Of a stretch of 64,000 nt of DNA, positions 4,159 through 62,022 are shown piece after piece. This stretch comes from a bacterium. Its GTDB lineage: Bacteria > UBA8248. The translations under genes and the position numbers were made by a program. Position 1 is the stretch's first letter. Every line of letters begins with the position of its first letter. The stretch covers positions 78,875-142,874 of the forward strand of contig JAJEJD010000019.1 in assembly GCA_022828125.1 (NCBI GenBank), read 5' to 3'. A model generated the notes under the pieces. That model saw only the letters and a list, made by a program, of their open reading frames with translations. It ran no database searches and was not told the origin of the DNA.

Positions 4159-4256
4159 TCCCGCGTCCCCTCAATGGTAGTCCACAATCTCCACGTCATT
4201 CTTTTCGTCGTCTTGCAGGCAAAGGAGTTTGCGTAGGGGCAAGCCCCCTGTGCCCG

Positions 4257-8579: not shown

Positions 8580-11831
<3,252 letters not shown>

Positions 11832-12019: not shown

Positions 12020-12150
12020 CGTCAGGGGACAAAGGCAACCCCCCCTACCCCCCCTTGTCAGGGGGGTATAAAAAGGCGATGCGCCCTCGCCGCCGGTGGA
12101 AGGGGTTTTGCTTTTTCTTGCCCCCCTGACAAGGGGGGGTAGGGGGGGTT
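12020..12150. mobile_element. MITE-like palindromic element, family A (G/C-run inverted termini AACCCCCCTACCCCCCCTTGTCAGGGGGG ... CCCCCCTGACAAGGGGGGGTAGGGGGGGTT), inserted between carA and carB
   Basis: Near-perfect ~30-bp terminal inverted repeats. Same element at 51536-51738, 57140-57302, 58897-59046 and as solo ends at 50885-50942 and 56794-56845. Confidence 0.7.
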
Positions 12151-12197: not shown

Positions 12198-13285
<1,088 letters not shown>

Positions 13286-13289
<4 letters not shown>

Positions 13290-29467: not shown

Positions 29468-30634
29468 GTGACGGGAAAGGTGGATGCCAGGGGCGCGTTC
29501 GAACTTGACGAATCCCAGCGGATGCTGGCCGATACGGTGTATGAACTGAGCCGACGCCACGTCGCGCCGCGCGCCGCTGCGATCGACGAGAACGACGAAT
29601 ACCCCGAAGATATATTTCAGCTCTTGAAATCCCACGGCCTCCTCGGCCTCTACGTTCCCGAAGCCTACGGTGGCGCAGGACTCGGGATACTCGAAACCTG
29701 CGTCGCCATCGAGCAGATGGCGCGGTTTTGCTCGAACTCCCCTCTTTTCTTCTCCGTTCACCTGCTCGCCACGCGGCCCGTCGCCATCGGGGGGAGCGAG
29801 GAGCAGAAAAAAACCTATCTCACCGGCGTCGCGCGGGGCGAATTGCGGCCCGCCTTCTCGCTCACCGAGCCGCACGCGGGTTCTGACGCGGCGAACATAT
29901 CGACGCGGGCGGTCCGCGACGGCGATTCGTGGGTCATCAACGGCCAGAAATGCTACTGCACGGGCTCGAGCGTCGCGGATTTCATCACCGTGGCGGCGAA
30001 AACAGAACCAGATAAAGGGGCGAAGGGCATATCGTTCTTCATCGTTCCCAGGGGCGCATTCCGCGTGGGCCGCCATGAGCGGAAAATGGGGATGCGGGGG
30101 ATACCGACCTGTGAAGTCTTTCTCGAAAATGCGCGAGTCCCCCTGGAGAACATGATCGGCGAGCAAGGCCTCGGCTTCAAGACGGCCATGCTCGGCTTCA
30201 ACCAGGCGCGGCCCGCCATCGGCGCACGGGGGGTGGGTCTGGCGCAGGGGTGTCTCGATTACGCATCTGCATACGCCAGGGAGCGCGAGGCGTTCGGCAA
30301 GCCTATCGCGCAGCACCAGGCCGTGCAGTTCATGCTCGCCGACATGTTCATGGAAACCGAGGCCGCCCGTCTGCTCGTTTACCGCGCCGCCTCGATGGTG
30401 GATAATGGCGATTACCGGAAAGAACACGTGCATTTCATCTGCGCCGCGAAATGCTACGCCACCGACACCGCCATGAAGGCCGCCGTGGACGGCGTTCAGG
30501 TGCTCGGCGGCGCGGGCTACATGATGGACCATCCGCTAGAGCGGTTCATGAGGGACGCGAAGCAGTTGCAGATCATCGAGGGAACCAACCAGATACAGCG
30601 CATGGTCATCGCCCAGAATTTATTAAGTTTATAG
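29468..30634 (+). CDS. Acyl-CoA dehydrogenase family protein (paralog 2, tandem)
   Basis: Over 60% identical by eye to the upstream ACAD across the full length. Confidence 0.9.
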   Translation: MTGKVDARGAFELDESQRMLADTVYELSRRHVAPRAAAIDENDEYPEDIFQLLKSHGLLGLYVPEAYGGAGLGILETCVAIEQMARFCSNSPLFFSVHLLATRPVAIGGSEEQKKTYLTGVARGELRPAFSLTEPHAGSDAANISTRAVRDGDSWVINGQKCYCTGSSVADFITVAAKTEPDKGAKGISFFIVPRGAFRVGRHERKMGMRGIPTCEVFLENARVPLENMIGEQGLGFKTAMLGFNQARPAIGARGVGLAQGCLDYASAYAREREAFGKPIAQHQAVQFMLADMFMETEAARLLVYRAASMVDNGDYRKEHVHFICAAKCYATDTAMKAAVDGVQVLGGAGYMMDHPLERFMRDAKQLQIIEGTNQIQRMVIAQNLLSL

Positions 30635-48795: not shown

Positions 48796-48823
48796 AATAG
48801 CCCGCCGCTGCGGGATTGTGGTT

Positions 48824-49012
48824 GCGCGCACGCTTTTGAAGTTCACTCCCCCCTTGAGGGGGAGTCGAGGAAGCCGAGCGGTTTGTGCGAAGGCTGACTC
48901 GGTGGGGGGTGAAATGCGTTTTATCGCCATCCGAATTATACCCCCCACCGGCGCGACTTCTGGCTTCGCCCTCGTCTTGCCGACTCCCCCTCAAGGGGGG
49001 AGTTGATTTCCT
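48824..49012. mobile_element. MITE-like palindromic element, family B (termini CACTCCCCCCTTGAGGGGGAGTC ... GACTCCCCCTCAAGGGGGGAGTG)
   Basis: Long imperfect palindrome. Same family at 50501-50654, 56528-56700, 56863-57080, 58608-58762 and flanking the DUF559 gene at 60358-60853. Confidence 0.7.
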
Positions 49013-49104
49013 TCTTTCCAGGTCGGCGGCTACCTTCAAAAGCGATTGATTGATCCGCGGACCCATCGGCGCTAGGATGGCGTGAATCCGCTTTCCGCAG
49101 ACCT

Positions 49105-49650
49105 TTGGACACCCCCATGACGCGAATCGCCATCATGACGGCGCCAGAACTCGAACTCTCGCTCAAGAGGATAGCCTCCGAGATGACCGAGGCGTGCGCG
49201 GCGGATAAGGACATCGCCCTCATCGGCGTGCTCACCCGGGGAGAACCGCTCGCGCGGCGCCTGGCGGGGCACATCGAAGAGATGGAGGGCGTCTCGCCGC
49301 CTCTGGGCGCACTCGACATCGGCCTCCACCGAGACGACGGCGGCCACCCCGCCGAGGGGCGCGGCTTCGAGCGCACCCTCATCGATTTCGACCTGACGGG
49401 CCGGGGCGTGTTCCTTATCGACGACGTCTTCTTCACGGGCAGGACGGCCCGCGCGGCCATCGACGCCCTGATGGAGCTGGGCCGCCCGCGCAAGATATGG
49501 CTCGCCGCCCTCATCGACCGGGGCCACCGCGAGCTCCCCTTCCGGCCCGACTTCATCGGCAAGAACGTGCCCACCGCGCTTGCGGAGCGCATCCGGGTGC
49601 GGACCCGCGAGGTCGACGGCGAGGACGGCGTCTGGCTGGAGCGGGAGTGA
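49105..49650 (+). CDS. pyrR: PyrR-like regulator / uracil phosphoribosyltransferase (second paralog)
   Basis: 181 aa. PRPP motif VFLIDDVFFTGRT. About 45% identical by eye to the operon-encoded PyrR. Confidence 0.75.
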   Translation: MDTPMTRIAIMTAPELELSLKRIASEMTEACAADKDIALIGVLTRGEPLARRLAGHIEEMEGVSPPLGALDIGLHRDDGGHPAEGRGFERTLIDFDLTGRGVFLIDDVFFTGRTARAAIDALMELGRPRKIWLAALIDRGHRELPFRPDFIGKNVPTALAERIRVRTREVDGEDGVWLERE

Positions 49651-49654
49651 GAGC

Positions 49655-49860
49655 AAATGCGGGCAAATGCGGGGTTGCGGAAAACGCTTTATTTTCCGGA
49701 ATTTCTTAATGTATTACTTTAGATACTTCCTGCAACGGGATGATTATATTTCCTGATTCCACGAATCCGCTTTTCGGTAATTTATCGAAAAACCCCGTGA
49801 ATTTACCGGAATTTATCGATATTTACCGTATTTTACGGGAAATATCATTACTTTCATTTC
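49655..49860 (+). repeat. AT-rich ~200-bp noncoding element, copy 2
   Basis: CAAATGCGGGCAAATGCGGGG then TTAATGTATTACTTTAGATACTTCCTGCAAC ... GGAATTTATCGATATTTACCGTATTTTACGGGAAAT. Collinear with copy 1. Confidence 0.55.
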
Positions 49861-50500
49861 CGCCTCGCTCCCGCATCCATGCGCGCCGCCCCCGGCGGGA
49901 AAAAGCCCTGTGGAGGGGTTGCCGGAGAAACTTCGTGATGGTTCTGTAGCAGGACAACCCAAAAGGGTTGTCCTGCCCTCCGTGGTTGTCCTTCGTCAGG
50001 ACAGGCACAGAGGCCACGGACAGGCGCAGGGGCCTGTCCGCTACGGGGTCGGTGGCCAAAACGATGAGCGATAGCGCGTTCACCGCCTCCACCCTCGCCC
50101 GTTCGCCCGGTTCCATCAGAAAGCCTCCTCTCCCCGGGGTTGTTGAAAAAGTCCATCGAGGAGGAAGTGACGCCTGCGCCTCCGCCCGGTTTCGGGTTTT
50201 GGCCGTCATTCCCTCACCTCTCGGCGGGGGGGAGGACACACAGTCAGACATATATGTCTGACCCCTACGGAACCATCGCGTCTTGACCCGTAGGGGCGGA
50301 CCTAAGTGTCCGCCCGCTCTCGAAACAGGGTTTCTCAACAACCCCTCCCCGGGGCGGTCGCTCCCGGTTGATCGAGCAGGGATCGCCGTTTCCCCGCTTC
50401 GCGCGCACGATAGCCGGGTACGCGATTTCACGGAGTACGGCAAATGCGGGGAAATGCGCGGCGCGCGAAGATCGCTCCCCACCGAGGAGAATTTCAAATC

Positions 50501-50654
50501 CACTCCCCCCTTGAGGGGGAGTCACAGAGGCCGAGCGGTTTGTGCGAAGGCCGATGTGGTGGGGGGACATGCCACAGAAAAACTCCCCCCACCGGTTCGG
50601 TTTCGGGCAAAATCCCCCTCACCTCACCGACTCCCCCTCAAGGGGGGAGTGAAT
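50501..50654. mobile_element. MITE family B copy
   Basis: Termini as in 48824-49012. Confidence 0.7.
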
Positions 50655-51069
50655 ATGAACCTCGTCTGAGGTAAAAACCCCGTCCCGCCGACGTTTGACG
50701 ACGCGCGGAACACCTTTTTATACTGAACGTCCACGAGAGTTTCAGGAGACCCTGATTTTTCACCCATGACAAGACCCGCACGTATGCGTGGGGCGATCCC
50801 GAGGAGGGATCGCCACCTGCAACAGCATCCCGACCGACCCGCAAGGATTTTTTCAACAGCCCCCTCAAGGGGGGAGTTGATCTTTTTTGCGGGGTGTTGC
50901 CTTTTCATACCCCCCTGTCAAGGGGGGGTAGGGGGGTTGCCTTTCGCGGCGCCTGGACGCTTGACGAGGCGCGACCCCTCTTTTCATCGGGATTCAATAC
51001 GATACCCGACAAGAGGAATGAGGGAGGGAACTGAAAATGTGCGGAGAACTCACCAGGGGAAAAGGCGCC

Positions 51070-51489
51070 ATGCGGATAAAGCGGTTCGCCATTGCCATGT
51101 TCTTGATGTTTCTGGCAGCGGGGTGTCAGGACGATGCGGATATCGCATCGTATAATCTGTCGAAGTCGGCGGACAATTTCGAGATCGACCGGAGAATCGT
51201 GTTCTACAACGGGATTACGGATACTTATATGTTGACAATCGAGGGGCGGTGCTCGATTGAGGATCAGGAGAACCAGCTTGAAGTTACATGCAAGCTGGGG
51301 AGCGACAGTTTCAAGAAACATTTTTTGGGGTTGAGCGATAATGTGACGTATTTTGCGGAGCAACTGGACACGGCGGACGTGAGCGTATTCCATCACCGGA
51401 TCACGTTCAAGCCTCGGCAGATTGTTCCGGATGTTGATTTAAGAAATAGTCCGGGAGAAATGATTCAGGATCGCCCGGAGAATAAATAG
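51070..51489 (+). CDS. Lipoprotein of unknown function
   Basis: MRIKRFAIAMFLMFLAAGCQ lipobox. Host-like codon usage, but sits in the repeat zone. Confidence 0.5.
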   Translation: MRIKRFAIAMFLMFLAAGCQDDADIASYNLSKSADNFEIDRRIVFYNGITDTYMLTIEGRCSIEDQENQLEVTCKLGSDSFKKHFLGLSDNVTYFAEQLDTADVSVFHHRITFKPRQIVPDVDLRNSPGEMIQDRPENK

Positions 51490-51535
51490 CGAAGCGGCGA
51501 GCGGGCGCGTTCGGCGCGCCCTCCCTCGCCTGAAA

Positions 51536-51738
51536 ACCAACCCCCCCTACCCCCCCGTGACAGGGGGGTATAAAAAGGCGACGCCCACCGCCGGACGCTC
51601 GCCACCGATAGAGGGGCTTTTGTTTTTTCTTACCTCCCTGATAAGGGGGGGATATAAAAAGGCGATGCGCTCCCACCGGGCTGAGGGGGGTTTGCTCTTT
51701 CTTACCCCCCTGTCAAGGGGGGGTAGGGGGGGTTGGTT
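51536..51738. mobile_element. Array of two to three MITE family A units
   Basis: Repeated CCCCCCTACCCCCCC-TGACAGGGGGG-TATAAAAAGGCGA units. Confidence 0.7.
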
Positions 51739-52077
51739 TTTCTCGGGGCAAGAGGGGTTCGTGCGGAAACACGCAAAAGAGGCGGCCCCCTTCACGGGAC
51801 CGCCTCCTTGAATCCATCCGTCCGGGCTTGCCAAACGCGCCCGAACCGCGTATTAAGTCAGCTGGGGGTTACTCATTATTCCCGTCCCAAACCGAGAGGA
51901 CTCAAACTCTGTAGCATGGGCCGGTACAATTTGCTCCCGACGATGTAGAGCAACCAATGAGTAACCCCCAAAGGTCACGCGTCCCTTCCCGGCAACCTGC
52001 CCTTTCCTGTTTCTGACTCGCTTATCAGGCCCGCCCCGGCCCCGGGTCAGGCCAGGAGCCAAAGGCGTCTTTCTTCG

Positions 52078-53718
52078 TTACCTGTTCGCCGCGAACGACC
52101 CGATCAAAGCCGCGCTTCCCGCCGGATTGCTCTGCTGCGTGGCGTAGAAGGTCCCCGCCACCGAACCGGGAGCCTCGGCCGAATACGTCGTCGTTACCGT
52201 TCTTTGCGGATCATTCGTATCAATCGTTTCCGTTTTCGTGGATCTTCTGTTTCTTATTCCGAAGAACTGGCCCTTCCAGTCGCCGCTGAAGGATTTGCCG
52301 TCGACCACGCCGACGGCTTCGCCCCCGAAAGCGGCTTCAATGGTAGTTCCAATTCCAAATTTAGGCTCCTGTAACTCGATGCTCCCCGCGATGGATTTCC
52401 CGGCAGCGACGATGTTGGTGACTGCACCCTCGATGCTTCCCGAACCCGTCCCGGCTGCGTTCTGGAACTCGGCAGTGAGCGTAACGTCCGCCTCGAAGTA
52501 GCTCATATTGCCGTCCGCGAGGTAGGCGCCGTTCGCATCTCCCCGGTAGGTCGCCGTCATATCCTTGTCTTCCGCGACGAAATCGGTAATTTGGTTTAAA
52601 GTTCCTGTATCACCGCAAACTCTGGTAACACCTGTGCCACCTGCCGGGTCACTTACATTTTCAATACCGGTACAGAAGTTCTGAGTGGTAGTGGGGATCG
52701 GTTGGCTCCCGTACGCGAACGCCTCTATCGCATTACTCTGGACCCAGATGCCCGCGAGCAGGTAGTCCGTGTCGGCCACGTCTGCCGTTGTATACCGCTC
52801 GTCGTCGGGCGTTCCCGTATCGTCTGCCAGCGTAGCCGTTCTCATTCTGACGTCGGCCCTCGTTTTCGTAATGTCCGTGTAGGCGTTAACGAGAATGGAG
52901 TTGTCGGCGTTTTTCAGATCGAAGCCGTTAGGAAGGCGGCCCGTTCCGCTGAGTTTCGGCGTCTTGCTGTTCGATGAAAGGGTATTTACCGTAACCCCGC
53001 GCTCACCAACGACTCTGTCCGCGCCGGTCCCGGTATCTTTGGGGTATGTAGCTACATTTCCTCCAGTAGCCTCACCTATAGTCAAGGGATCCGTATTAGT
53101 GTTCACCAGGTCTGCCAGAATCGCGTCATAAATGATCTTGTTCTCTCTCACGTGCTGGATAAGCCCGGAGCCGTTCGTCGCGAGTTCCTCGTCCCTTTGC
53201 TGTTGTTCGCGAAGGTTCGCCACCGCATTCACGGCGCTCAGGAGAGACGCCAATGATTGTTGGGCGCTTATCAGGTCGTTCAGCGCCGCTTGTGCGTCCA
53301 ACACCGCGCCTTCCGCCTGCGCTCCCGTGGTGGCCACGTTCGCCACGGCGCTCGCGGTTACGATGTCCGTCAGCGCGTTCCGCGCGGCGTCGCCGAGGGA
53401 GCCTGCGCTTGTAATCTGCGCCTCCGTGGCGTCGTCGTGGCCCTGCACGGCCGAAGCGTCCGAGCGCGCCAATCCCTCACGCGTCCGGGCGTCGGCGATG
53501 ATCCCCGCGAGCGTATCCAGCGCCGCTTCGATTCTTTCCTCATCCGTCGGCGGCGGATCCGTGCAGTTCGGGTACGTTCCGACCTGACCCTGCGGGCATT
53601 CCATCACCGGCGGCATCTCTTCCGCAGTACCGCCGCCACCGCCACCGCCGCAACCGGAGGCAAATGCCGCAATGCACACGACAAGTACCGCCAATCTAAA
53701 AAGCTTGAGCATTTCCAT
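52078..53718 (-). CDS. Surface lipoprotein with TbpB/fHbp-like C-terminal beta-barrel (paralog 1)
   Basis: Lipobox AAFASGCGGGGGGG. Ala-rich helical region. C-terminal GDWKGQFFG...AGTFYATQ...GSFAANR resembles TbpB-like lipoprotein C-lobe handle. Confidence 0.6.
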   Translation of the reverse strand: MEMLKLFRLAVLVVCIAAFASGCGGGGGGGTAEEMPPVMECPQGQVGTYPNCTDPPPTDEERIEAALDTLAGIIADARTREGLARSDASAVQGHDDATEAQITSAGSLGDAARNALTDIVTASAVANVATTGAQAEGAVLDAQAALNDLISAQQSLASLLSAVNAVANLREQQQRDEELATNGSGLIQHVRENKIIYDAILADLVNTNTDPLTIGEATGGNVATYPKDTGTGADRVVGERGVTVNTLSSNSKTPKLSGTGRLPNGFDLKNADNSILVNAYTDITKTRADVRMRTATLADDTGTPDDERYTTADVADTDYLLAGIWVQSNAIEAFAYGSQPIPTTTQNFCTGIENVSDPAGGTGVTRVCGDTGTLNQITDFVAEDKDMTATYRGDANGAYLADGNMSYFEADVTLTAEFQNAAGTGSGSIEGAVTNIVAAGKSIAGSIELQEPKFGIGTTIEAAFGGEAVGVVDGKSFSGDWKGQFFGIRNRRSTKTETIDTNDPQRTVTTTYSAEAPGSVAGTFYATQQSNPAGSAALIGSFAANR

Positions 53719-53738
53719 CAGTTGCCCCCTAAGGCTAC

Positions 53739-53765
53739 GCCCCCCTTCCAGGACGGAAGGGGGCG
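53739..53765 (-). terminator. Stem-loop (CCCCCCTTCC-AGGA-CGGAAGGGGG) downstream of the 53861-55588 lipoprotein gene
   Basis: Perfect 10-bp GC-rich stem about 100 nt after the stop. No clear U-tract. Confidence 0.4.
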
Positions 53766-53860
53766 GGCGGTTGAAACCAGCTTCCTGATTATCTTTTGCT
53801 TTGAGAAGCCCCGGCCCCGGGCGTCATGCCGACGCCCGAGACCTGAGGCGTGGTGCTCTG

Positions 53861-55588
53861 TTACTCAGCCTTCCACGAGCCGAACGAGCCAAGAATGCTC
53901 ACGGGCGTATTTCCGCCGCCCGTAGCGGCGAAGGTGCCGGCCGCTGTCGTGGGGTATTCGGTTCGAGCCGCCATGGAATCCGCGGCCTCTTCGTTCGGGC
54001 CGTAGAACTGGCCGCCCCACATGCCTTTCAGCAATTGGCCTCCCACGGTGCCCTCGGCGGCGCCATCGAAGCCGCCTGTGCTGTCGCCGTTCTCTGCGCC
54101 CGCGATGACGGGCGCCCTCTTGAGCTCCAGCATGCCGGCCACATCCATGCCGCCGGCCCTGATGCCTGAGACGCTTCCGGTTACGGCGCCTATGAGCAGT
54201 CCGTCATTTTCGTCGGCGTTGCCGGTTGCCGGAGTGGAATCAGCCCCGACGGTGCCGCCGAAGTTGGCCGTCAGGCTCACGTCCGCGTCAAAGTACTCGA
54301 CCATGCCGCCCGCCGAATACATGCCCGTCGCGACGCCGTTATACGTCGCCGTGCCCGTGAGTTCGGCCCTGACCTGGAACGCGTCGCTGCCGCTCGCGAA
54401 TGCGCCGGCAACGGCCAAGTCCGTGGCTTCCGTAGCGTCCGGAACCGTCAGCCAGACGCCCCAGGCCAGATAGTCGGCGTCGAGCACTGGAGACGTGCCG
54501 GAAGCGATGGGCTGGAACGTATAGCCCTGAAGCGCCACGATAGCGCCCTTGTCGTCGACGCTGATCGAGCAGGCGGTGCCTGCGACGCAGTTGAACCGCC
54601 CCGTCTCCGTCGGGATGTTGTCGGTAGCGGACACGTTACGCGTCCCCGTGAAGGTTTTGCCGTTCCCTGGAATATCGCCCGTGATGATATGGCCTACTGC
54701 CAAGGCGGTAGCGCTATCAGCTCCATAATTCTGCCTCATCATGGGCGCCTGGATGTCCGTGTAGACGTTGACGTAGGTGTCGGAAGCGGCATTCTCCAGC
54801 AACTCTCTGCCCATCCAGTCCCCACGGGTCGTCAGCAACGCCGGGGTTTCGCCTCTCTGCAACGCGGTGCCGACGCCGGCTACTGTGATTGTAGGTCCAT
54901 TCGCGCCGTGAGCCACCGTTGCGCTGGCGGCCGGGGGGCCTTGAGAAACGCTTCCGGCTTCAACACCGGGACCATCAGTTACAGCGGTTTGTTCGGCGGC
55001 TTCACCGGCCACCGTTGCCAACTCCGTGCCGACTCTCGTCGCGTTGGAAACGGCTTTGGGCGCTTCCCGACCCTCGAGTACGGCATTGTCGATGGCCGCC
55101 TGGTTGGTGATCTTGTTCGCCAGCTTGGTCAGACCCAGGCCGCGCTCGCCGGCCGCTTCCATCGCCTTGTCGCGGGCCGCTTCGGCCGCCATCTGGTGCT
55201 CCATGGCCATTGCGGAAGTCGCCGCCGCCTGCGCAGCCGTGTTGGCTTCAGCTGCCATCGCCGCGTACGAGTGCGCGTTGCTGGCCGCCACGGGGTCTTT
55301 CGCGCCGTATACGGCCATCATCGCCGCCGAAGCCGCCGCCGCGGCCGCGTCCTGCGCGCCGCTCAGGGCCATCTCTTCGGCAAGATCCGCAGCGGAGGTG
55401 CAGGAACCGTCCGCGTTATACCGGCCACCGTCACCCTCGCACATTTCCTGCGCGGAAGGTGGTTCCGGCATCGGCATCGGTTCCTCTTCAACGGCAGCCG
55501 TTCCGCCGCCGCCGCAGCCGGCCAGCGTCAGCGCGAAGGCCGCCGCCAGCATGAATGAAAAGATTTTGTTGCCAGTGAGTTTCATCAC
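53861..55588 (-). CDS. Surface lipoprotein with TbpB/fHbp-like C-terminal beta-barrel (paralog 2)
   Basis: Lipobox LTLAGCGGGG. Shares with paralog 1 a Cys-x(n)-Cys loop just after the lipobox, YF(E/D)ADV(T/S)LTA(E/N)F, DYL(L/A)xG(I/V)W and the C-terminal G(Q/M)WxGQF(F/Y)G...GTF(Y/A)AT...GSF motifs. Confidence 0.6.
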   Translation of the reverse strand: MMKLTGNKIFSFMLAAAFALTLAGCGGGGTAAVEEEPMPMPEPPSAQEMCEGDGGRYNADGSCTSAADLAEEMALSGAQDAAAAAASAAMMAVYGAKDPVAASNAHSYAAMAAEANTAAQAAATSAMAMEHQMAAEAARDKAMEAAGERGLGLTKLANKITNQAAIDNAVLEGREAPKAVSNATRVGTELATVAGEAAEQTAVTDGPGVEAGSVSQGPPAASATVAHGANGPTITVAGVGTALQRGETPALLTTRGDWMGRELLENAASDTYVNVYTDIQAPMMRQNYGADSATALAVGHIITGDIPGNGKTFTGTRNVSATDNIPTETGRFNCVAGTACSISVDDKGAIVALQGYTFQPIASGTSPVLDADYLAWGVWLTVPDATEATDLAVAGAFASGSDAFQVRAELTGTATYNGVATGMYSAGGMVEYFDADVSLTANFGGTVGADSTPATGNADENDGLLIGAVTGSVSGIRAGGMDVAGMLELKRAPVIAGAENGDSTGGFDGAAEGTVGGQLLKGMWGGQFYGPNEEAADSMAARTEYPTTAAGTFAATGGGNTPVSILGSFGSWKAE

Positions 55589-55796
55589 TTTTGAGTCCTC
55601 CTAGTCTCGTGATATTAAAGAGCTTTGCAACCAACAAAACTTTGAAGTGTTCGGATTCGACCTCCTTTCTTTGACTTTCCGATATTTCATTTCATTCCGT
55701 TATCGGGCTTCTATCGTTTCATCGAATCATCAACCGGGGCCGGAGCGCGCGGCCGCCGGCCCGGACTCACGCGCCCGGGCCGGTGACCGGCTTATC

Positions 55797-56142
55797 CACG
55801 AGACTGGTGTGGGATTCTTGGCGTTCTTCATGATGGTTAGAGTCCTCCAGCCCCGCGATAAAAAACTTCCTGGCCCCTGGCCGAATTTTTCGTTTCAGGC
55901 TCCTGCCGGGCCTTTCCTTGAATCGATCACGAGTCTGGAGAGGGATTTGTGGCGTGGTTCATCATGAGTTGAGTCCTCTAGCCTCGTGATATTTCGTCTT
56001 CCGGCTCTCGCCGGGCTTGCCGTTCCCGCCTGAGCGCCGCCGAGTGCACGGGCCGCCGGGCTTTCCGGTTCACGAGACTGGAGGGGGATTGGTGGCGTGG
56101 TTCGCCGTGGGTTGAGTCCTCTGGCCTCGTGATGTTTGCTGC
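55797..56142 (-). repeat. Three tandem ~140-bp repeat units, each reproducing the 5' leader/RBS/start-codon region of the downstream lipoprotein gene (bounded by TCACGAG...CTCGTGA inverted ends)
   Basis: Units at 55797-55859, 55928-55990 and 56083-56142 match the genuine leader at 55590-55620 (ATCACGAGACTAGGAGGACTCAAAAGTGATG on the coding strand). Two units carry mini-ORFs (MMNHATNPSPDS, MKNAKNPTPVSW...). Confidence 0.6.
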
Positions 56143-56527
56143 AAGCGCCCGGCTAGTTACTGGGTCGTCGTCTTCCGGGCCGTCAAGTTACTTGAGCGAA
56201 CAATCTACACCCCGGGGTTCCCGCTCTCTCCGTCTTTCGGGAGAAATCCGCGTTGCATGGAGCGGGCGGCCCTGAGGGCGACTACTCACGTCTATTGCTT
56301 GACATATATGATAGTGCGGCAAGCTTTCCGCTTTTGTCAACCCTTTATTTCAACTTGCGCGCAACTTGCATTCCGTTCCGGGCGGTTCGGGTATGGTTCG
56401 ATTATGAACCATCGGGGATCGGGGGTCAAACGGGATTGGGGAGGGAGCGTTTGACCCGATTGAGGAATGAGGGTTTGACGGGATTGGGGAGGGGCTGTTG
56501 AAAAAGTCCCGTGGAGCGATTTGGGCT

Positions 56528-56700
56528 GAGCGCACGCTTTTGAAGTTCACTCCCCCCTTGAGGGGGAGTCACAGAGGCCGAGCGGTTTGTGCGAAGGCTG
56601 AATCGGTGGGGGGACATGCCACAGAAAAGCTCCCCCCACCGAGTCAGCCTTCACCTGTCGGTTCGGCTTCCTCGACTCCCCCTCAAGGGGGGAGTGAATT
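56528..56700. mobile_element. MITE family B copy (with conserved left flank GCGCACGCTTTTGAAGTT)
   Basis: Same termini and flank as 48824-49012. Confidence 0.7.
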
Positions 56701-56793
56701 TCTTCTCTACTCTGTCGACAACTTCCCGCAAGGCGTTGTTGAAAAAGGCCACATTTCAGGGGTAGAGGAGAAGCCCCTCTCGCCTGGAAAAGC

Positions 56794-56845
56794 AACCCCC
56801 CCTACCCCCCCTTGTCAGGGGGGTATAAAAAGGCGATGCCCACCG
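56794..56845. mobile_element. Solo end of MITE family A
   Basis: AACCCCCCCTACCCCCCCTTGTCAGGGGGGTATAAAAAGGCGATGCC. Confidence 0.6.
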
Positions 56846-56862
56846 ATGAGAGAGAAGAGAAT

Positions 56863-57080
56863 CACTCCCCCCTTGAGGGTTATTACCAAAGAAACAAGAA
56901 GGGAATTCACTCCCCCCTTGAGGGGGAGTCGAAGAGCTGAGGGCGTAAGCCCGAAAGCGATTCGGTGGGGGGAGTTTTTTTGTGGCATGTCCCCCCACCG
57001 ATTCAGCCTTCGCACAAACCGCTCGGCTTCATCGTCTGGCTTTCCCCTCGGGAAGCCAGACCCTCAAGGGGGGAGTTGAT
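56863..57080. mobile_element. Composite/nested MITE family B copy (duplicated left terminus)
   Basis: Two CACTCCCCCCTTGAGGG left ends 45 nt apart, then the perfectly palindromic core GCCGAGCGGTTTGTGCGAAGGC. Confidence 0.65.
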
Positions 57081-57139
57081 TTTCTCTCTCGTCGGTCGGT
57101 TACATGCGACAAATCCAGAGTTCCGGGGTTTTTCAACAA

Positions 57140-57302
57140 CCCCCTTGTCAGGGATAAAGGCCCCCCCCCTACCCCCCTTGACAGGGGGGCATGAAAAAGC
57201 AAAACCCTGGCCCGGTGGTGGGCGTCGCCTTTTTTCATATCCCCCACATGCCGGGGCGTCGGCCTTTTTTACCCCCCTGTCAAGGGGGGGTAGGGGGGGT
57301 TG
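57140..57302. mobile_element. Full-length MITE family A copy
   Basis: Both TIRs present. Internal palindrome GCAAAACCCTGGCCCGG...CCGGGGCGTCGGCC. Confidence 0.7.
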
Positions 57303-57563
57303 ATTTCATCAATCACGTTTCCCGTAGGAGCGGGGTGCCCGCCCGTTGTTGATATACGACCCTGGGACGCAGGACAGGCACGGAGGCCTGTCCCTACGGG
57401 ATCGAACCCGATTGATGCGGGAGGGATTCGTCGTAAAAACCCCCTACCCCCCTTCCCGCCGTTGTTGTAAGATGTCCCTCTCGGCCCGGGGGCGGCGCGG
57501 GTCTTGTAACCGCATTTGTATGCCACCGCATCCCGAGGCCGGGGGTTTTCGGGAGAATCCGAC

Positions 57564-58526
57564 ATGGCTCCCCCGCCCGACATTCCGGACCGCCTGCTCG
57601 TCGCCGTCGGCGGCAACGCGACCCACCCGCCCGAGATACGCGGCACCGCGGCGGAACAGGCCGCCATCGCCGCAGCGACCGGCCGCGCCCTGCTCCCGCT
57701 TCTGCAACTCCAGAACGAACTCATCATCACGCACGGGAACGGTCCCGTGGTCGGCAAGATACTCATGCGCCAGGCGGTATCGAGCGAGCAGGTGACGCCG
57801 ATGACGCTCGACATCTGCGTCGCCCACAGCCAGGGGGGCATCGCCTATCTCCTCATGCAGGCGTTCGAGAACGCGTTAAGACGCGCAGGGGATCCCCGCC
57901 ACGTGGTCTGCCTGCTGACGCAGGTGGAGGTCGACCCGGCGGACCCGGCCTTCGACGCGCCGACCAAGTTCGTGGGCTACACCTACACGGAAGAAGAGGC
58001 GAGGCGGTATGAACGCGAGATGGGCTGGACGTTCAAAGAAGACGGCGGCCGCGGCTGGCGGCACGTCGTCGCATCCCCAAAGCCTAAACACATCGTGGAC
58101 ATCTCGCTCATCGAGACGATCGCCAAAAGCGGCGCGGTCGTGATAGCGGGCGGCGGCGGGGGCATCCCCGTCGTGCGGGAAGCGGACGGGGCGCGGCGCG
58201 GACTCGCCGCCGTCATCGACAAGGATTTGACGTCCGCCCTCATGGCGAACGTCCTGGGGATCGAGACGATGATGATCCTGACCGCCGTGCCGAGGGTGGC
58301 GATCCACTTCGGGACGCCCGAGCAAAGAGAGCTGGATATGGTGTCGCTCGACGAGATCAAGAGATACCACGCCCAGGGCCACTTCCCGCCCGGCAGCATG
58401 GGCCCCAAGATAGAGGCGGCGATCCGCTTTCTGGAAGGCGGCGGCGAGCGGGTGCACATCGCCGCGCTGGAAGACGCCGTCCCCGCCCTGAGGGGTGATG
58501 CGGGGACGTGTGTGTATAAGAGGTAA
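57564..58526 (+). CDS. arcC: Carbamate kinase family protein
   Basis: Start at MAPPPDIPDRLLVAVGGNA. Amino-acid kinase fold motifs VAVGGNA, ITHGNGPQVG-like ITHGNGPVVG, GGGGGIPV. Confidence 0.8.
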   Translation: MAPPPDIPDRLLVAVGGNATHPPEIRGTAAEQAAIAAATGRALLPLLQLQNELIITHGNGPVVGKILMRQAVSSEQVTPMTLDICVAHSQGGIAYLLMQAFENALRRAGDPRHVVCLLTQVEVDPADPAFDAPTKFVGYTYTEEEARRYEREMGWTFKEDGGRGWRHVVASPKPKHIVDISLIETIAKSGAVVIAGGGGGIPVVREADGARRGLAAVIDKDLTSALMANVLGIETMMILTAVPRVAIHFGTPEQRELDMVSLDEIKRYHAQGHFPPGSMGPKIEAAIRFLEGGGERVHIAALEDAVPALRGDAGTCVYKR

Positions 58527-58607
58527 GGATGGGCGGTTTTGGTTCGTCATTCCGGCCTTGAGCCGGAATGACGGCGGTGGGCAATCGCGATTGATGAGGG
58601 AGGAATA

Positions 58608-58762
58608 CACTCCCCCCTTGAGGGGGAGTCACAGAGGCCGAGCGGTTTGTGCGAAGGCCGATGTGGTGGGGGGAGATTTATTCTGTGGCATGTCCCCCCA
58701 CCGATTCGGTTTCGGGTTTACACCCTCACCTCATCGACTCCCCCTCAAGGGGGGAGTGAATC
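58608..58762. mobile_element. MITE family B copy
   Basis: As above. Confidence 0.7.
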
Positions 58763-58896
58763 CTTCTCTTCGTCGGCGGGGAATTCCCTCCAAGGGGGAG
58801 CGACTTCGGACAGGCACGGAGGCCTGTCCCTACGATTCCTCCCGCGTCAATCGCGTTTCACCTGTAGGGGGTTGTTGAAAAAACCTGTGTAAAAAA

Positions 58897-59046
58897 ACCA
58901 CCCCCCCCTACCCCCCCTTGACAGGGGGGTAAGAAAAAGCAAAACCCCTGGCCCGGCGGCGGGCGTCGTCTTTTTTCATATCCTCCACTTGCCGGGGCGG
59001 CGGCCTTTTTATACCCCCCTGTCAAGGGGGGGTAGGGGGGGTTGGT
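58897..59046. mobile_element. Full-length MITE family A copy
   Basis: Near-identical to 57140-57302. Confidence 0.7.
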
Positions 59047-59223
59047 TTTCAAGGCGAAAGGGTACGACCCCGGACAGGTCGCGACCTGCCCCTACAAAAC
59101 CCTCCTCTTATTATATACACCCCCTTTGCACACCCTCTCCCTGCGGTGCTACGTTTTTCCCCATAAAAATTCCGGTATCCACGAGCGCGCAGGCGCGCGC
59201 CTTTTCAAAAGGGGGGACGCAAG

Positions 59224-60327
59224 ATGCAGGCCGACCTGTTCCGCGTGGCGATGGACTCGCCCGACGACATCTCAGGGGTCGCCGCTCTCATCGAGGGGGG
59301 CGAATGCCGGGCGGAGGACGTCGTCGGCATCATGGGCAAGACCGAGGGCAACGGCTGCGTGAACGATTTCTCGCGCGGGTTCAGCAACTTCGTCCTGCTC
59401 GATTATTTCTCGCGCGCGATGGGCAAGAGCCGCGAGGAGGTGGAGGCGCAGATCGCCCTCATCATGTCCGGCGGAACCGAAGGCGTCATGTGCCCGCACT
59501 TCTCCGTGTTCACGAAGTCGGAGAACGGCGCGGGCGACGGGCGCGCCAAGCGCCTCGCCATCGCCTCGGGCCACACGGCGGATTTTTTCCCTGAGGAGAT
59601 GGGCCGGATGGCGCAGGTGCGCGCGACGGCGGACCTCGTGCGGAGGCTGATGGAAGAGGCGCAGATCGAGAGCGCGGCGGATCTCCACTTCGTCCAGGTG
59701 AAGTGCCCGCTCCTGACGGGCGAGCGCATGGCGGACGCGGCGAAGCGCGGGAAGAGCGTCTGCACGGAGGACACGTATAAGTCGATGGGCTACTCGCGCG
59801 GGGCTTCGGCGCTGGGGGTGGCCCTGGCGGCGGGCGAGGTGGCCGAAAGCGCGTTGAGCGACGAGGTGATTTGCAGGGACTGGTCGCTCCAATCGGGCGT
59901 CGCCTCGACCTCGGCGGGCATCGAGCTCATGTGCAACGAGGCGATGGTGATCGGCAACAGCGCGGCCTGGGGCGGGGACCTCGTCGTCGGCCACAGCGTG
60001 ATGGAAGACGCCATCGACAGGGATGCCGTGCGCGAGGCCATCGTGAACGCAGGGGTGGCGTTCGAGTGGTCGCTCACGCCCGAGCAGCGCGCGCGCGTCG
60101 TGAACGTCTTCGCCAAGTGCGAGGCCTCCCCCGACGGGCTGGTGCGCGGGCGGCGGCACACGATGCTCGACGACTCGGACATCAACAACACGCGCCACGC
60201 GCGCTCGGTGGTGAACGCGGTGGTGTCCTCTATCGTCGGCGACACGATGACCTACGTCTCGGGCGGGGCCGAGCACCAGGGCCCTCCCGGCGGCGGCCCC
60301 GTCGCGGCGGTCGTAAGGGCGGGGTAG
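59224..60327 (+). CDS. Ring-opening amidohydrolase of the cyanuric acid amidohydrolase / barbiturase (AtzD/TrzD) family
   Basis: 367 aa. N-terminus ...GKTEGNGCVNDFSRG and the internal threefold repeat architecture are characteristic of this family. Confidence 0.6.
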   Translation: MQADLFRVAMDSPDDISGVAALIEGGECRAEDVVGIMGKTEGNGCVNDFSRGFSNFVLLDYFSRAMGKSREEVEAQIALIMSGGTEGVMCPHFSVFTKSENGAGDGRAKRLAIASGHTADFFPEEMGRMAQVRATADLVRRLMEEAQIESAADLHFVQVKCPLLTGERMADAAKRGKSVCTEDTYKSMGYSRGASALGVALAAGEVAESALSDEVICRDWSLQSGVASTSAGIELMCNEAMVIGNSAAWGGDLVVGHSVMEDAIDRDAVREAIVNAGVAFEWSLTPEQRARVVNVFAKCEASPDGLVRGRRHTMLDDSDINNTRHARSVVNAVVSSIVGDTMTYVSGGAEHQGPPGGGPVAAVVRAG

Positions 60328-60357
60328 GGGGGGGCCGCTACCAGCGAGATATGCAAT

Positions 60358-60853
60358 CACTCCCCCCTTGAGGGGGAGTCGAAGAGGCCGAGCCATTGGG
60401 CGAAGGCCGATTCGGTGGGGGGTAAAACGAGATGGGTGAAAGCGGACGTCAATACAATCCCCGGCATTTGGGAAACGCCCGCGCCCTCCGCCGTGATCAC
60501 ACCGACGCTGAAGGGTTGCTGTGGAGTCGCCTGCGCGACAAACAGATCGATGGCCACAAATTCCGCCGCCAGCAACCGATAGGTCCGTATATCGCGGATT
60601 TCGCGTGCATGACGGAAAAACTGCTGATCGAACTCGACGGCGGAGGCCATGCGGAGCAAAAAGCAAAGGACCGCCGGCGCGAAGAATATCTGCGGCGCAG
60701 TGGTTATCGCGTGCTGCGTTTCTGGAATACGGAGGTCTTTGAGAATCTTTCCGGTGTTCTGGAAAGAGTGCGAGAAGCGCTAGCAGACCCCCCCACCGAT
60801 TCAGCCTTCGCATAAATCGCTCGGCTTCATCGACTCCCCCTCAAGGGGGGAGT
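60358..60853 (+). mobile_element. Full-length family B element carrying a DUF559 endonuclease gene (putative autonomous progenitor of the family B MITEs)
   Basis: Left end CACTCCCCCCTTGAGGGGGAGTCGAAGAGGCCGAGC...GGTGGGGGG and right end CCCCCCACCGATTCAGCCTTCGCA...GACTCCCCCTCAAGGGGGGAGTG are the same arms that abut directly in the MITE copies. Confidence 0.65.
60432..60815 (+). CDS. DUF559 (Vsr/Mrr-like PD-(D/E)xK) endonuclease-domain protein
   Basis: 127 aa. ...AEGLLWSRLRDKQIDGHKFRRQQPIGPYIADFACMTEKLLIELDGGGHAEQKAKDRRREEYLRRSGYRVLRFWNTEV is the canonical DUF559 pattern. Confidence 0.8.
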   Translation: MGESGRQYNPRHLGNARALRRDHTDAEGLLWSRLRDKQIDGHKFRRQQPIGPYIADFACMTEKLLIELDGGGHAEQKAKDRRREEYLRRSGYRVLRFWNTEVFENLSGVLERVREALADPPTDSAFA

Positions 60854-60957
60854 GATTTTATCTCTGCTTGGTCGACAAAACCTACAGAGGTCCCCCCTTC
60901 GGACAGGGGCGGAGGCCTGTCCGCTACGAATGGAACCTGTTTGAACAGAGAAGAACC

Positions 60958-62022
60958 CTACCCCGCCCTCACATTCCGCCGCGCCTGCACGAAGACGACC
61001 GTGAGGACGATGATGGCCTGGAAGACGAACACGGCGGCGCCGGGGAGGCCGATGCTGCGCTGTAAGGAATCCGACCCCGAGACGAGGACGGCGAACACGG
61101 CGGCGGCTATAGTGACGCCGAGCGGGTTGTTGCGCCCGATGACGGCGATGAGGATGGCCATCGCCCCGTAGTTGGGCGCGCCCTCAGCGCCGCTGATGCC
61201 CAATAACAGGCTCTGGTGGAAGCCCGAGACCTCGATGGCGCCCGCGAGGCCCGAGAGCGCGCCGCAGGTCGGCATGATGATGAGCGTGACGCGCGCGACG
61301 TTGATGCCGCCGAAGCGCGCGGCGCGGGGGTTGTCGCCCACCGCGCGTATCTCGTAACCCGCGATGGTGCGCGTCATGAAGAAGTACATGCCGACCGCCG
61401 CCACGAGCGCGATGATGAAGCCCGCGTGCGCGCCGGCCCTCGGCATCACCTGCGGCAGCACGGAGGCGTCGGGGATGGGGAGCGAGATGGCCTCGCCCGC
61501 CAGCGGGTCGTTCCAGGGGCCGTTCGCGAGGTAGTCCACGAGGTAGAGCGCCACGAAGTTCAGCATGACCGTCACGAATATCTCGCTCACCTGGAAGCGC
61601 ACGCGCAGGATGCCGGGGATGAAGCCCCAGAACCACCCGCCGAGGATTCCGCCCAGCAGTCCCAGCGGGACGAAGACCGGCCAGGGGAGGTTCATGCCTT
61701 CCAGGGCGAAGGCCGTGCCCGTCATGCCGATGGCGCCCGCGTATATCTGCCCGTCCACGCCGATGTTGAAGTGGCCGCCGCGCATCCCGAAGGCCACCGC
61801 GAGCGAGGCGAGAAGCAGCGGGGAGAACTTGTTGAGCGTCTGCGCGAATCCGCCCCACGTGCCGAGCGAGGAGCGAAGCACCGTCCCGAGCGCCACGAGC
61901 ACGTCGCCGCCGAAGGCGACGATGAAGACGGCCCCGCAGGCGAGCGCCAGCGCCCCCGCCGCCGCGTAGGTGACGGCGAACTCCATCGCGACTTTTTTCT
62001 TCTCGCTCACGCCCGCCGCCAT
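60958..62022 (-). CDS. ABC transporter permease (BMP-family nucleoside/simple-sugar type)
   Basis: 354 aa, about 9 TM helices. Confidence 0.85.
   Translation of the reverse strand: MAAGVSEKKKVAMEFAVTYAAAGALALACGAVFIVAFGGDVLVALGTVLRSSLGTWGGFAQTLNKFSPLLLASLAVAFGMRGGHFNIGVDGQIYAGAIGMTGTAFALEGMNLPWPVFVPLGLLGGILGGWFWGFIPGILRVRFQVSEIFVTVMLNFVALYLVDYLANGPWNDPLAGEAISLPIPDASVLPQVMPRAGAHAGFIIALVAAVGMYFFMTRTIAGYEIRAVGDNPRAARFGGINVARVTLIIMPTCGALSGLAGAIEVSGFHQSLLLGISGAEGAPNYGAMAILIAVIGRNNPLGVTIAAAVFAVLVSGSDSLQRSIGLPGAAVFVFQAIIVLTVVFVQARRNVRAG

Follow-up and report, generated by a model that had tools for sequence, protein, structure and literature searches.

A palindromic repeat family with a DUF559 nuclease-bearing form in a UBA8248 bacterium

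Among described bacterial repeats, those closest to the family analysed here (family B) include the MITEs that accompany an autonomous transposon (Correia, Nezha and IS-derived elements). Like MITEs, family B is short, non-coding and multi-copy, has inverted ends in common with a rarer, longer, protein-coding copy, and is mainly intergenic and nested in repeat clusters. Unlike MITE systems, its sole protein is a 127-aa Vsr-like nuclease rather than a DDE, HUH or serine transposase, it has no target-site duplication, and the common 'ends' make up nearly all of the short element. The REP/REPIN sequences and their RAYT gene (Nunvar 2010; Bertels and Rainey, PMC3116915) are similar in grouping hairpin modules into inverted doublets, in placing a rare protein gene between inverted copies of the same modules and in lacking a target-site duplication. 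By contrast, family B flanks a PF04480 gene instead of a Y1 HUH transposase, lacks the GTAG tag, and has modules in which a G-box is combined with a CTTG loop of set orientation.

The DUF559 profile matches the homing endonuclease I-Bth0305I (3R3P, E 6.5e-4), a Vsr-like (EDxHD) enzyme of homologous fold that cuts a pseudopalindromic site (PMC3239194). As with homing elements, DUF559 cassettes occupy one conserved hsdS site in many lineages; unlike I-Bth0305I-type systems, they have no intron or intein, bring their own palindromic arms and are accompanied, at unrelated sites, by numerous derivatives without the gene. Rickettsia palindromic elements (RPEs), reportedly described by Ogata et al. 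in 2000, encode nothing and are by that description set apart from the DUF559 cassette. Both RPEs and ShiLan (PMC11855218) resemble cassettes found in valyl-tRNA synthetase and hsdS genes in being read through in frame, without splicing, in essential or methylase genes. ShiLan differs as an in-frame homing insertion with an HNH nuclease and without palindromic arms (PMC11855218), and the copies at our locus differ from both in being intergenic. Rhizobia have intergenic repeats of their own (RIME, Sm-repeats and AB/C palindromes, as mentioned in PMC2573895); similarly, the arm of the Sinorhizobium (S. meliloti) DUF559 element is a multi-copy intergenic palindrome, found at 712 places in 163 replicons, 34 of them in the gene's own replicon. 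The papers that we read make no connection between DUF559 and these rhizobial repeats.

The reading that we favour, with a probability of about 0.6, is that a palindromic selfish insertion element occurs here in two forms: the short family B copies, which are gene-less and non-autonomous, and a full-length copy, B6, which carries one DUF559 nuclease gene. On this reading the element belongs to a bacteria-wide superfamily of one design.

Repeat families in the window

The window is the whole 64,000-nt stretch analysed (UBA8248 bacterium, GCA_022828125.1, contig JAJEJD010000019.1, positions 78,875-142,874, forward strand). A preliminary description had outlined a repeat-dense zone at 48800-60900 with six copies of family B. 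The zone is real: all 11 family B ends of the window (CACTCCCCCCTTGAGGGGGAGTC, up to 2 mismatches; 0 expected from 100 dinucleotide shuffles) lie in 48844-60854. They pair as five gene-less copies of 149-170 bp (B1-B5) and one 497-bp gene-bearing copy (B6), besides which there are two solo half-ends.

48844-49004, no strand: B1, gene-less family B, 161 bp, with its own 31-nt loop
50501-50651, no strand: B2, gene-less family B, 151 bp, hairpin z -8.4
50860-50881, no strand: solo right-hand B hairpin, fused to the family A right half at 50890-50940
56548-56696, no strand: B3, gene-less family B, 149 bp, hairpin z -12.8
56863-56880, no strand: family B half-hairpin, outer to B4 by 45 nt
56908-57077, no strand: B4, gene-less family B, loop inverted, right-end hairpin interrupted by an extra hairpin (GTCTGGCTTTCCCCTCGGGAAGCCAGAC)
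58608-58758, no strand: B5, gene-less family B, 151 bp, loop inverted, z -8.9
60358-60854, plus strand: B6, full-length family B, 497 bp, DUF559 gene between a left and a right arm; ends matched exactly at 60358-60380 and 60832-60854
60358-60422, plus strand: B6 left arm, with hairpin 60358-60380, 33-nt spacer 60381-60413 and G-box GGTGGGGGG 60414-60422
60432-60815, plus strand: DUF559 gene, 127 aa, Vsr-like PD-(D/E)xK nuclease (PF04480, E 1.4e-39, 134.7 bits)
60788-60854, plus strand: B6 right arm, with C-box CCCCCCCACC 60788-60797, spacer and terminal hairpin 60832-60854

The short copies fold into near-perfect long hairpins (z-scores -8.4 to -12.8). A single loop had been assigned to them; ACATGCCACAGAAAA does separate the arms of B2 and B3 and, inverted, those of B4 and B5, but the loop of B1 differs, being the type of 163-bp metagenome copies and part of a loop family also present in L003, in the related genome L085 and in many metagenome loci. 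B4 is complementary to B3 over 72 nt (94%), and its variant end recurs in L099 and L121; a 'double end' like that outside B4 recurs in L003 and L085. As claimed, B6 holds an intact 127-aa PF04480 open reading frame between family B arms. The arms are inverted over 58 nt (84% complementary) and separated by 417 nt; the start codon lies 9 nt past the left-arm G-box, and the right arm contains the final 10 codons and the stop codon. The protein matches PDB 3HRL (E 1.2e-40). Its complete set of invariant family residues and a dN/dS of 0.21-0.45 against relatives predict a functional gene.

The other repeats of the zone are listed below, with the family A copy that lies outside it.

8580-11831, minus strand: carB
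12036-12150, no strand: family A copy between carB and carA, hairpin z -9.3
12198-13532, minus strand: carA
50890-50940: family A right half
51538-51735, no strand: family A copy with a partial internal duplication
56793-56845, no strand: family A left half, 53 nt, 89% complementary to 57254-57306
57160-57301, no strand: family A copy, hairpin z -5.0
58899-59044, no strand: family A copy, hairpin z -6.6
49946-50315: four REP-like hairpins with a CTAC/GTAG tag (49946-49975 minus, 50017-50044 plus, 50242-50268 plus, 50290-50315 minus)
57372-57397, plus strand: REP-like hairpin with CTAC (GGACAGGCACGGAGGCCTGTCCCTAC)
58808-58833, 59072-59095 and 60900-60927: other copies of the REP-like hairpin with CTAC
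56494-56506, plus strand: GTTGTTGAAAAAG-type motif, with others at 48788, 50139, 56735, 57128 (minus strand) and 58871

Family A is a genuine family (end CCCCTACCCCCCCTTGACAGGGGGGTA, up to 3 mismatches, 9 matches against 0 expected), and its copy between carA and carB is complete. The 'about 7' copies first counted in the zone are ends rather than elements; they amount to three complete and two half copies. Family B sequence within the left half at 56793-56845 indicates a nested or rearranged mosaic. The third hairpin family likewise exists, with 12 matches to the hairpin with CTAC in the window against about 2 by chance (8 of them in 49946-60927), but it is a classical GTAG-tagged REP (PMC3733652) and not a MITE; the hairpins at 50242-50268 and 50290-50315 form an inverted doublet. 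True GTAG-tagged REPs share the zone with family B (PMC3733652). The flanking motif GTTGTTGAAAAAG, at up to 1 mismatch, has 7 matches in the window against 0.06 expected, 6 of them in the zone. Its enrichment in the zone stands; we rejected it as a target motif and identify it as the outer inverted repeat of an extended B unit. With this outer repeat and the extra half-hairpins around many copies, it is uncertain how far the B unit really extends, which counts against our reading.

Long open reading frames of the zone had been put down to the repeats, and some, such as 56498-57079, are indeed repeat-built and match no family. This frame is annotated as a gene in the source record. The objection that the elements are assembly artefacts fails, as independent assemblies contain them too, among these long-read chromosomes and assemblies of cultured rhizobia.

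Arms around DUF559 genes in other bacteria

In a set of 78 distant DUF559 loci spanning many phyla, the gene has inverted arms on both sides in 71 (score above the 95th percentile of shifted controls), with a median arm score of 49.5 against 19 for the null. A paralogue at an unrelated locus (L003, 92% identical) has the same family B arms, a check that the preliminary description had proposed, and 2.4 kb from it there is a B copy without the gene. Against our reading count the 7 of 78 loci that lack arms and an 80%-identical relative (L004) with only scattered half-ends nearby.

The arms share one design. From the outside in, they consist of a terminal C-run/G-run hairpin whose CTTG loop reads towards the element interior, a spacer that in some elements holds a second hairpin, and a G-box (GGTGGGGGG or GGTGAGGGG). 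This box and its mirror image, a C-box, enclose the nuclease gene. A geometry of 25-nt hairpin, 33-34-nt spacer and CGGTGGGGGG was found in most of 16 aligned arms (9 loci, several phyla), 3 of which hold extra inserted sequence. The modules were recognised by eye in about 30 loci, and a detector finds 104 arms. Both arms of one element have a stem core in common in 31 of 51 cases (6.3 expected), and the loop contains TTG in 54 of 122 arms, as against its complement CAA in 6. Between the window, Binatia, Nitrospira, Latescibacterota and other loci, the 25-nt end and G-box differ little or not at all, while the genes there have just 64-77% DNA identity; conservation is stronger in the arms than in the protein. 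Below about 65% identity, stem sequence does not co-vary with protein relatedness (Spearman 0.05, p 0.057), which counts against our reading.

Gene-less copies, insertion and inversion

Gene-less copies are far commoner than gene-bearing ones, by 5:1 in the window. Across 120 metagenome loci with B ends (740 kb), we found 177 ends and 30 paired elements and no DUF559 gene. This excess speaks for our reading; the absence of the gene from these loci counts against it with respect to mobilisation in trans, and so does the lack of a recognisable gene remnant in the window's B2-type loop. Gene-less copies with cognate arms adjoin DUF559 in Elusimicrobia, Dehalococcoidia, Alphaproteobacteria and Rickettsiales. 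Their loops are variable; in four lineages they retain start or end bases of the gene: ATGAAAAC in L072, the 3' end of the gene in L043, AATTCT..GAYGAA in L012, and TAAAAYG in window-type copies. Together with the arms at 71 of 78 loci, these retained bases support the earlier proposal that short copies derive from a DUF559-carrying selfish element.

Insertion of the cassette is established by the valyl-tRNA synthetase of L012 (Rickettsiales), which carries a 143-aa in-frame DUF559 cassette that is missing in 5 aligned orthologues; none of its 120 best matches has a DUF559 domain. Arms and gene are present together in this insert, and the orthologues have no pre-existing repeat. Cassettes of 483 (L005), 582 (L006), 555 (L008) and 510 nt (L009), all multiples of 3, occupy one common site in hsdS, and 8 of the 10 nearest long relatives are HsdS proteins. 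Insertion runs from hairpin edge to hairpin edge, into intergenic DNA or in frame (valyl-tRNA synthetase, hsdS and GHMP kinase). A check for target-site duplications found none, with not a single shared nt at 43 of 52 loci. Presence and absence do vary, as L085 lacks B2, B5, the B/A block 50863-50943 and the approximately 1-kb repeat cluster 56458-57450 to which B3 belongs; in addition, its DUF559 segment is inverted, and this polymorphism supports our reading.

One possible but improbable alternative is that DUF559 is a later passenger, a homing endonuclease gene that targets the central loop (G-box to C-box) of independent palindromic repeats; these would be moved by host functions or another enzyme, and the short copies would be uninvaded targets rather than deletion derivatives. 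The constant location of the gene between G-box and C-box fits this idea, as do the excess of gene-less copies (0 of 120 metagenome loci with the gene), the remnant-free B2-type loop, the proven homing endonuclease in the nuclease family and the homing-like occupation of the same hsdS site. Gene start and end bases would not, however, be expected in uninvaded targets, the variable loops fit a conserved homing site poorly, no other cargo gene was seen within such arms, and the valyl-tRNA synthetase received arms and gene where no repeat had been.

We give still less credence to an invertible switch, in which the arms flip the cassette so that a host gene such as hsdS is read through or truncated (phase variation), with repeats elsewhere as by-products. 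At one and the same locus, L085 and the window do have the DUF559 segment in opposite orientations; predicted inversion targets show a 14-fold enrichment of DUF559 proteins and are enriched in RM genes as well (PMC9881135); and many relatives are in frame within hsdS or an Eco57I-type methylase. Yet the window copy and most of 80 loci are intergenic, no recombinase gene is linked to the cassettes, and a switch leaves hundreds of gene-less copies and the valyl-tRNA synthetase insert unaccounted for. Strongly disfavoured is the notion that the arms are immobile host features beside a repair gene (terminators, REP-like mRNA stabilisers or G-quadruplex motifs): the G-box, 5-25 nt upstream of the start codon, could be a ribosome-binding site and a G-quadruplex motif is present in 35 of 102 arms (4 of 850 controls), but arms are kept where the gene is translated within a host protein and could do without separate signals, related genomes differ in which copies they have, and a universal enzyme has an in-frame insert in one lineage only.

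A candidate mobilising enzyme

If the short family B copies are a selfish element without its gene, DUF559 is the candidate mobilising enzyme; we found no known transposase for these elements. In the mechanism that we infer, DUF559 would recognise both the hairpin and the G-box, and would probably dimerise on the near-palindromic end, much as I-Bth0305I acts on a pseudopalindromic site. It would nick or cut at these arm modules or at a target. The element might then be copied by host recombination or repair, in a homing-like or gene-conversion-like manner. Gene-less copies, which keep the cis modules, could be mobilised in trans, and recombination between arms could also invert the cassette. 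The excess of DUF559 proteins among predicted inversion targets (PMC9881135) is an independent hint in favour of our reading. Joining of DNA strands is beyond a PD-(D/E)xK nuclease on its own, and insertion where no homology exists would therefore take more than DUF559, which counts against our reading.

Our literature search found no publication describing a DUF559-bearing palindromic element. With its genes set between such arms across many bacterial phyla, a large protein family of unknown function probably supplies the enzyme for a selfish DNA element that had not been described.

Family B and the DUF559 gene of the window

The window lies within a 142-kb metagenome scaffold (KELL22-1 scaffold_149), and its repeat-dense zone is surrounded by ordinary genes. 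The neighbours are a CCA-adding/poly(A) polymerase-type gene, a PyrR-like phosphoribosyltransferase, a small VG64-family gene, a carbamate kinase-like gene, an AtzD/TrzD ring-opening amidohydrolase and an ABC transporter; two large secreted-protein genes without family matches also lie in the zone.

48800-60900: repeat-dense zone
48844-60854: stretch holding the 23-nt terminal hairpins (ends) of the palindromic family B
60358-60854: B6, the gene-bearing family B copy
60432-60815: DUF559 gene of B6
50892-51586: outward-facing ends of family A, a second palindrome family (60 nt, 82% complementary)
51037-51489: 150-aa Phage_VG64-family gene (E 3.7e-53) between these family A ends
52078-53718, minus strand: 546-aa protein, lipoprotein-like N terminus
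53861-55588, minus strand: adjacent 575-aa protein, lipoprotein-like N terminus
55796-56137: unit of 131-143 nt, three times in tandem, upstream of the 575-aa protein gene
3303-3432 and 49693-49841: two copies, 46 kb apart, of an AT-rich block of ~140 nt with repeated TTTACCGGAATTTATCGATATTTACCG motifs
56428-56490, 58580-58605 and 58840-58865: small palindrome family GTCAAACG.GATTG..GAGGGAGCGTTTGAC
60313-60333 and 60948-60968: shared terminal sequence of the convergent AtzD and ABC permease genes
28879-29438 and 30059-30618: 77-81% identical segments 1180 nt apart, which look like a tandem paralogous gene pair

Consistent with the preliminary description of family B, its 23-nt end occurs 11 times in the stretch, compared with 0 in 100 shuffles. 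These ends make up five short copies (B1-B5, 149-170 bp), which fold as near-perfect long hairpins (z-scores -8.4 to -12.8), two solo half-ends and the 497-bp copy B6. As had been noted, B6 carries an intact 127-aa open reading frame between its arms; it matches PF04480 (E 1.4e-39) and ends within the right arm. Other repeats had been put down to further families. For family A, about seven copies had been noted in the zone and we found three complete and two half copies; the copy between carB and carA was borne out. The hairpins assigned to a third family are real (12 in the window versus ~2 by chance), yet each has a CTAC directly after it, which makes them REPs of the GTAG-tagged type reported by Di Nocera et al. 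(PMC3733652). Genes annotated from repeat sequence are artefacts.

The recurring motif GTTGTTGAAAAAG was also confirmed, with seven occurrences in the window versus 0.06 expected. Among 28 distinct gene-less B copies with sufficient flank, it stands 17-55 nt beyond the hairpin and points outwards; 16 copies have it to the left, 12 to the right and 10 on either side at once, against a background of 0.009 per 110 nt. Half-hairpins are frequently found just past it, and the motif therefore belongs to an extended, layered palindrome. Given the outer motif and half-hairpins, the B unit may reach past its hairpins to limits that are uncertain; in the window they cannot be fixed exactly, since the junctions have diverged too far in related genomes.

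Several other features of the window were observed. Each tandem unit ends GAGTCCTC..GCCTCGTGAT, resembling the sequence right before the start codon of the 575-aa protein gene; the array recurs in L004 (1860-2290), the locus of a DUF559 relative in another genome, and may consist of repeats of a leader or of a small ORF. The two secreted proteins have no match in Pfam or NCBIfam and are kept in L004 and in L085, a colinear locus. The left family A half-copy beside the VG64 gene is missing in L085. The AT-rich blocks share up to 90% identity over 40 nt, and the second lies directly downstream of the PyrR-like gene. The small palindrome is also present in L004 (2590-2650), and its halves enclose B5 and a REP in the window, which suggests nesting. 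The AtzD and ABC permease genes both end ...AGGGCGGGGTAG, so that their stop codons lie within a 13-nt inverted repeat that is family A end-like and encloses the intergenic region of B6.

The window protein scores 134.7 bits against a Pfam gathering cut-off of 20.6, and is homologous to the solved structures 3HRL (E 1.2e-40) and 3R3P (E 6.5e-4). The latter is the homing endonuclease I-Bth0305I, whose cleavage site is pseudopalindromic (PMC3239194). The window protein is closely related to the DUF559 protein 3HRL, and the match to it settles the fold; to Vsr and I-Bth0305I it is distantly related. The predicted active-site residues D56, E67, D69, H73 and D80 do not vary among 32 sequences and are all present in the window protein, and the gene is under purifying selection (dN/dS 0.21-0.45). 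At 50% identity, 27,159 clusters match the window protein; small stand-alone DUF559 proteins account for ~13,000 clusters at E <= 1e-10. To our knowledge, no role has been established for DUF559, which ranks among the large protein families of bacteria. Surveys of the PD-(D/E)xK superfamily list it just as Vsr-like.

Inverted arms around DUF559 genes in other genomes

Three close relatives of the window protein were located, at 95%, 92% and 80% identity. The first (L002/L085) occupies the same locus in a related genome, where it has the left arm and a gene-less B copy after it. The second (L003) occupies an unrelated locus; its right arm is intact, its left end has decayed, and the distance to a gene-less B copy is 2.4 kb. 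The third (L004) is surrounded just by scattered half-ends. These loci therefore show that DUF559 paralogues elsewhere are flanked by family B arms.

For generality, we collected 80 loci with DUF559 relatives of 48-66% identity, one genome per species, from lineages including Binatia, Nitrospira, Chloroflexota, Latescibacterota, Alpha-, Beta- and Gammaproteobacteria, Desulfobacterota, Melainabacteria, Elusimicrobia, a CPR lineage and Rickettsiales. The upstream 250 nt were aligned to the reverse complement of the downstream 250 nt, with shifted windows as control. The inverted-arm score exceeded the control 95th percentile in 71/78 loci. The common design is a terminal hairpin (C-rich 5' half, G-rich 3' half), a spacer, a G-box, the gene and then the mirror image; the hairpin usually has an 8-11-bp stem and a 3-5-nt loop, and the spacer is ~5 nt, or ~33 nt with a second small hairpin. 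Read inwards, the loop contains TTG in 54/122 arms compared with 6/122 for its complement CAA, and the ends are therefore oriented and not mere palindromes. A stem core was common to both arms of one element in 31 of 51 cases (6.3 expected). The window-type subgroup has a fixed geometry (25-nt hairpin, 33-34-nt spacer, CGGTGGGGGG); its hairpins and G-boxes are identical or nearly so, whereas its genes are just 64-77% identical in DNA, and thus the arms are under stronger constraint than the protein.

Two further ideas about the arms were set aside. Deep co-evolution of protein and stem sequence was not significant except at >65% identity. A cassette designed to be open end to end in the DUF559 frame was too weak to claim: of 52 loci, 32 have this frame open across the left arm (19 and 24 for the other frames) and 28 across the right arm (27 and 24). 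Against Rfam, no RNA family matched the element at gathering score, just weak miRNA-like hairpins.

Cultured carriers exist. In Sinorhizobium meliloti Ak57, the arm of the DUF559 gene LZK74_28985 occurs 34 times in its own replicon and, across rhizobia, at 712 places spread over 163 replicons. The replicon with this locus is wrongly recorded as a plasmid and is a chromosome; the genome collection searched contained no element-free strain that would provide an empty site. The second cultured carrier is Picosynechococcus PCC 7002, on plasmid pAQ6.

Insertion sites and gene-less copies

Presence and absence of the repeats could be followed in L085, which aligns colinearly with the window (77-95% identity). 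It is without B2, B5, an 80-nt B/A block (50863-50943) and a ~1-kb mosaic (56458-57450), and has one extra B copy of its own.

The cleanest case of insertion is outside the window, in the valyl-tRNA synthetase of a Rickettsiales genome (L012, 3308-6520). This gene holds a 143-aa in-frame insert that runs from hairpin edge to hairpin edge (DUF559, nt 3971-4399) and, also in frame, a gene-less copy (about 5288-5400); both are G/C-rich and palindromic in a genome of 37% G+C. The insert is missing in five aligned orthologues, and none of the best 120 matches has a DUF559 domain. The hsdS genes of L005, L006, L008 and L009 (about 3900-4500) each hold an in-frame cassette at one and the same site of their central conserved region, and all these cassettes have lengths that are multiples of 3. 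Many HsdS proteins (Type I restriction specificity subunits; P0122-P0148) carry such a cassette there, some with an N-terminal nucleotidyltransferase domain as well, and HsdS make up eight of the ten nearest long relatives; an Eco57I-type methylase with two DUF559 domains (P0145) is also among the ten. A GHMP kinase (L029) likewise bears a cassette. Such in-frame inserts, whether in hsdS, in methylases or in a tRNA synthetase, are cassettes of foreign origin. No target-site duplication was found at any of 52 loci, 43 of which have no direct repeat even of 1 nt, or at the L012 synthetase junctions.

The short B copies had been proposed to be internal-deletion derivatives of a DUF559-carrying selfish element. 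When JGI metagenomes were scanned with the B end, 120 loci (740 kb) were recovered; they hold 177 ends and 30 pairs, most commonly 163 bp long, and no DUF559 gene. Near DUF559 in L031, L043, L067, L072 and L076 there are gene-less doublets whose arms resemble those of the gene at that locus. The gene-less copy of L072 retains ATGAAAAC, the first codons of the gene; that of L043 retains the final bases ahead of the C-box; that of L012 has AATTCTTCCTCTGATGAA in place of the full copy's AATTCTGACGAA; and the loop of window-type 163-bp copies starts TAAAAYG, resembling the 9 nt from G-box to start codon in B6. These retained gene bases support descent by internal deletion, although the B2-type loop (ACATGCCACAGAAAA) has no recognisable gene remnant.

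Other arrangements were seen around such copies. In a Dehalococcoidia chromosome (L043, 100-4700), tandem gene-less hairpin/G-box doublets flank the DUF559 gene on both sides, and the arrays end beside a tRNA-like sequence at ~4620. In L098 (3057-3424) and L151 (3180-3613), B-like arms (CACTCTCCCCTTGCGGGAGAGTC ... G-box) surround a non-coding interior of 250-300 nt, AT-rich and itself palindromic, with no gene.

A candidate class of mobile DNA

Family B resembles MITEs in being short, non-coding and multi-copy with terminal inverted repeats (the five short window copies, the 30 metagenome pairs), but it has no target-site duplication and shares its ends with B6, whose sole gene, DUF559, is not of a known transposase family. 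It differs from REP/REPIN-RAYT systems in that it has no GTAG/CTAC tag, which the separate third family does have, and in that the gene between its arms is PF04480 and not a Y1 HUH transposase (RAYT). As with Rickettsia palindromic elements, the L012 synthetase holds gene-bearing and gene-less palindromes in frame, whereas the window copies are intergenic.

The literature that we found on DUF559/PF04480 does not describe a mobile unit for it. We rate the element as a selfish palindrome with non-autonomous derivatives, known in kind, and its enzyme as unprecedented; it stands a fair chance of being a new class of mobile DNA. The boldest reading, to which we give a probability of roughly 40%, is that small stand-alone DUF559 proteins are the enzymes of an unrecognised, bacteria-wide class of mobile DNA: hairpin/G-box cassettes that move by means of a Vsr-like nuclease alone, make no target-site duplication and leave many gene-less repeats. 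In the most economical mechanism, DUF559 would recognise the end modules and make nicks or breaks, host repair would copy the element, and gene-less copies would persist through their retained cis modules; joining at non-homologous sites is beyond what a lone nuclease can explain.

In the principal alternative, DUF559 would be a homing gene that invaded the loop of an independent repeat family. Like a homing endonuclease gene, the cassette occupies one hsdS site across lineages, although the window copy is situated otherwise; unlike one, it is read through in frame, with no splicing motif seen, and has palindromic arms in place of an intron, an intein or a free-standing position beside its target. 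A role as an inversion switch is a further possibility, hinted at by the DUF559 segment being inverted in L085 relative to the window and by DUF559 being 14-fold overrepresented among predicted inversion targets (PMC9881135). That the element is simply plasmid or phage cargo is ruled out by its rarity on those vehicles (31/72,556 plasmid records and 1 phage).

The idea of a DUF559 element is directly testable in S. meliloti and Picosynechococcus PCC 7002. If the mobile-class reading is true, the gene-less repeats may include unexplained intergenic repeats long known from rhizobia, and cassettes can settle in frame within essential genes. The element would account for the origin of many G/C-rich intergenic palindromes and for odd tails of 'PLPQGERG' and 'TPPLRGS' type that annotators meet on predicted proteins. 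It is a candidate for a new type of mobility, seemingly dependent on a nuclease of the mismatch-repair fold that nicks or cuts, and linking DUF559 to a defined DNA element would give this large family a function.
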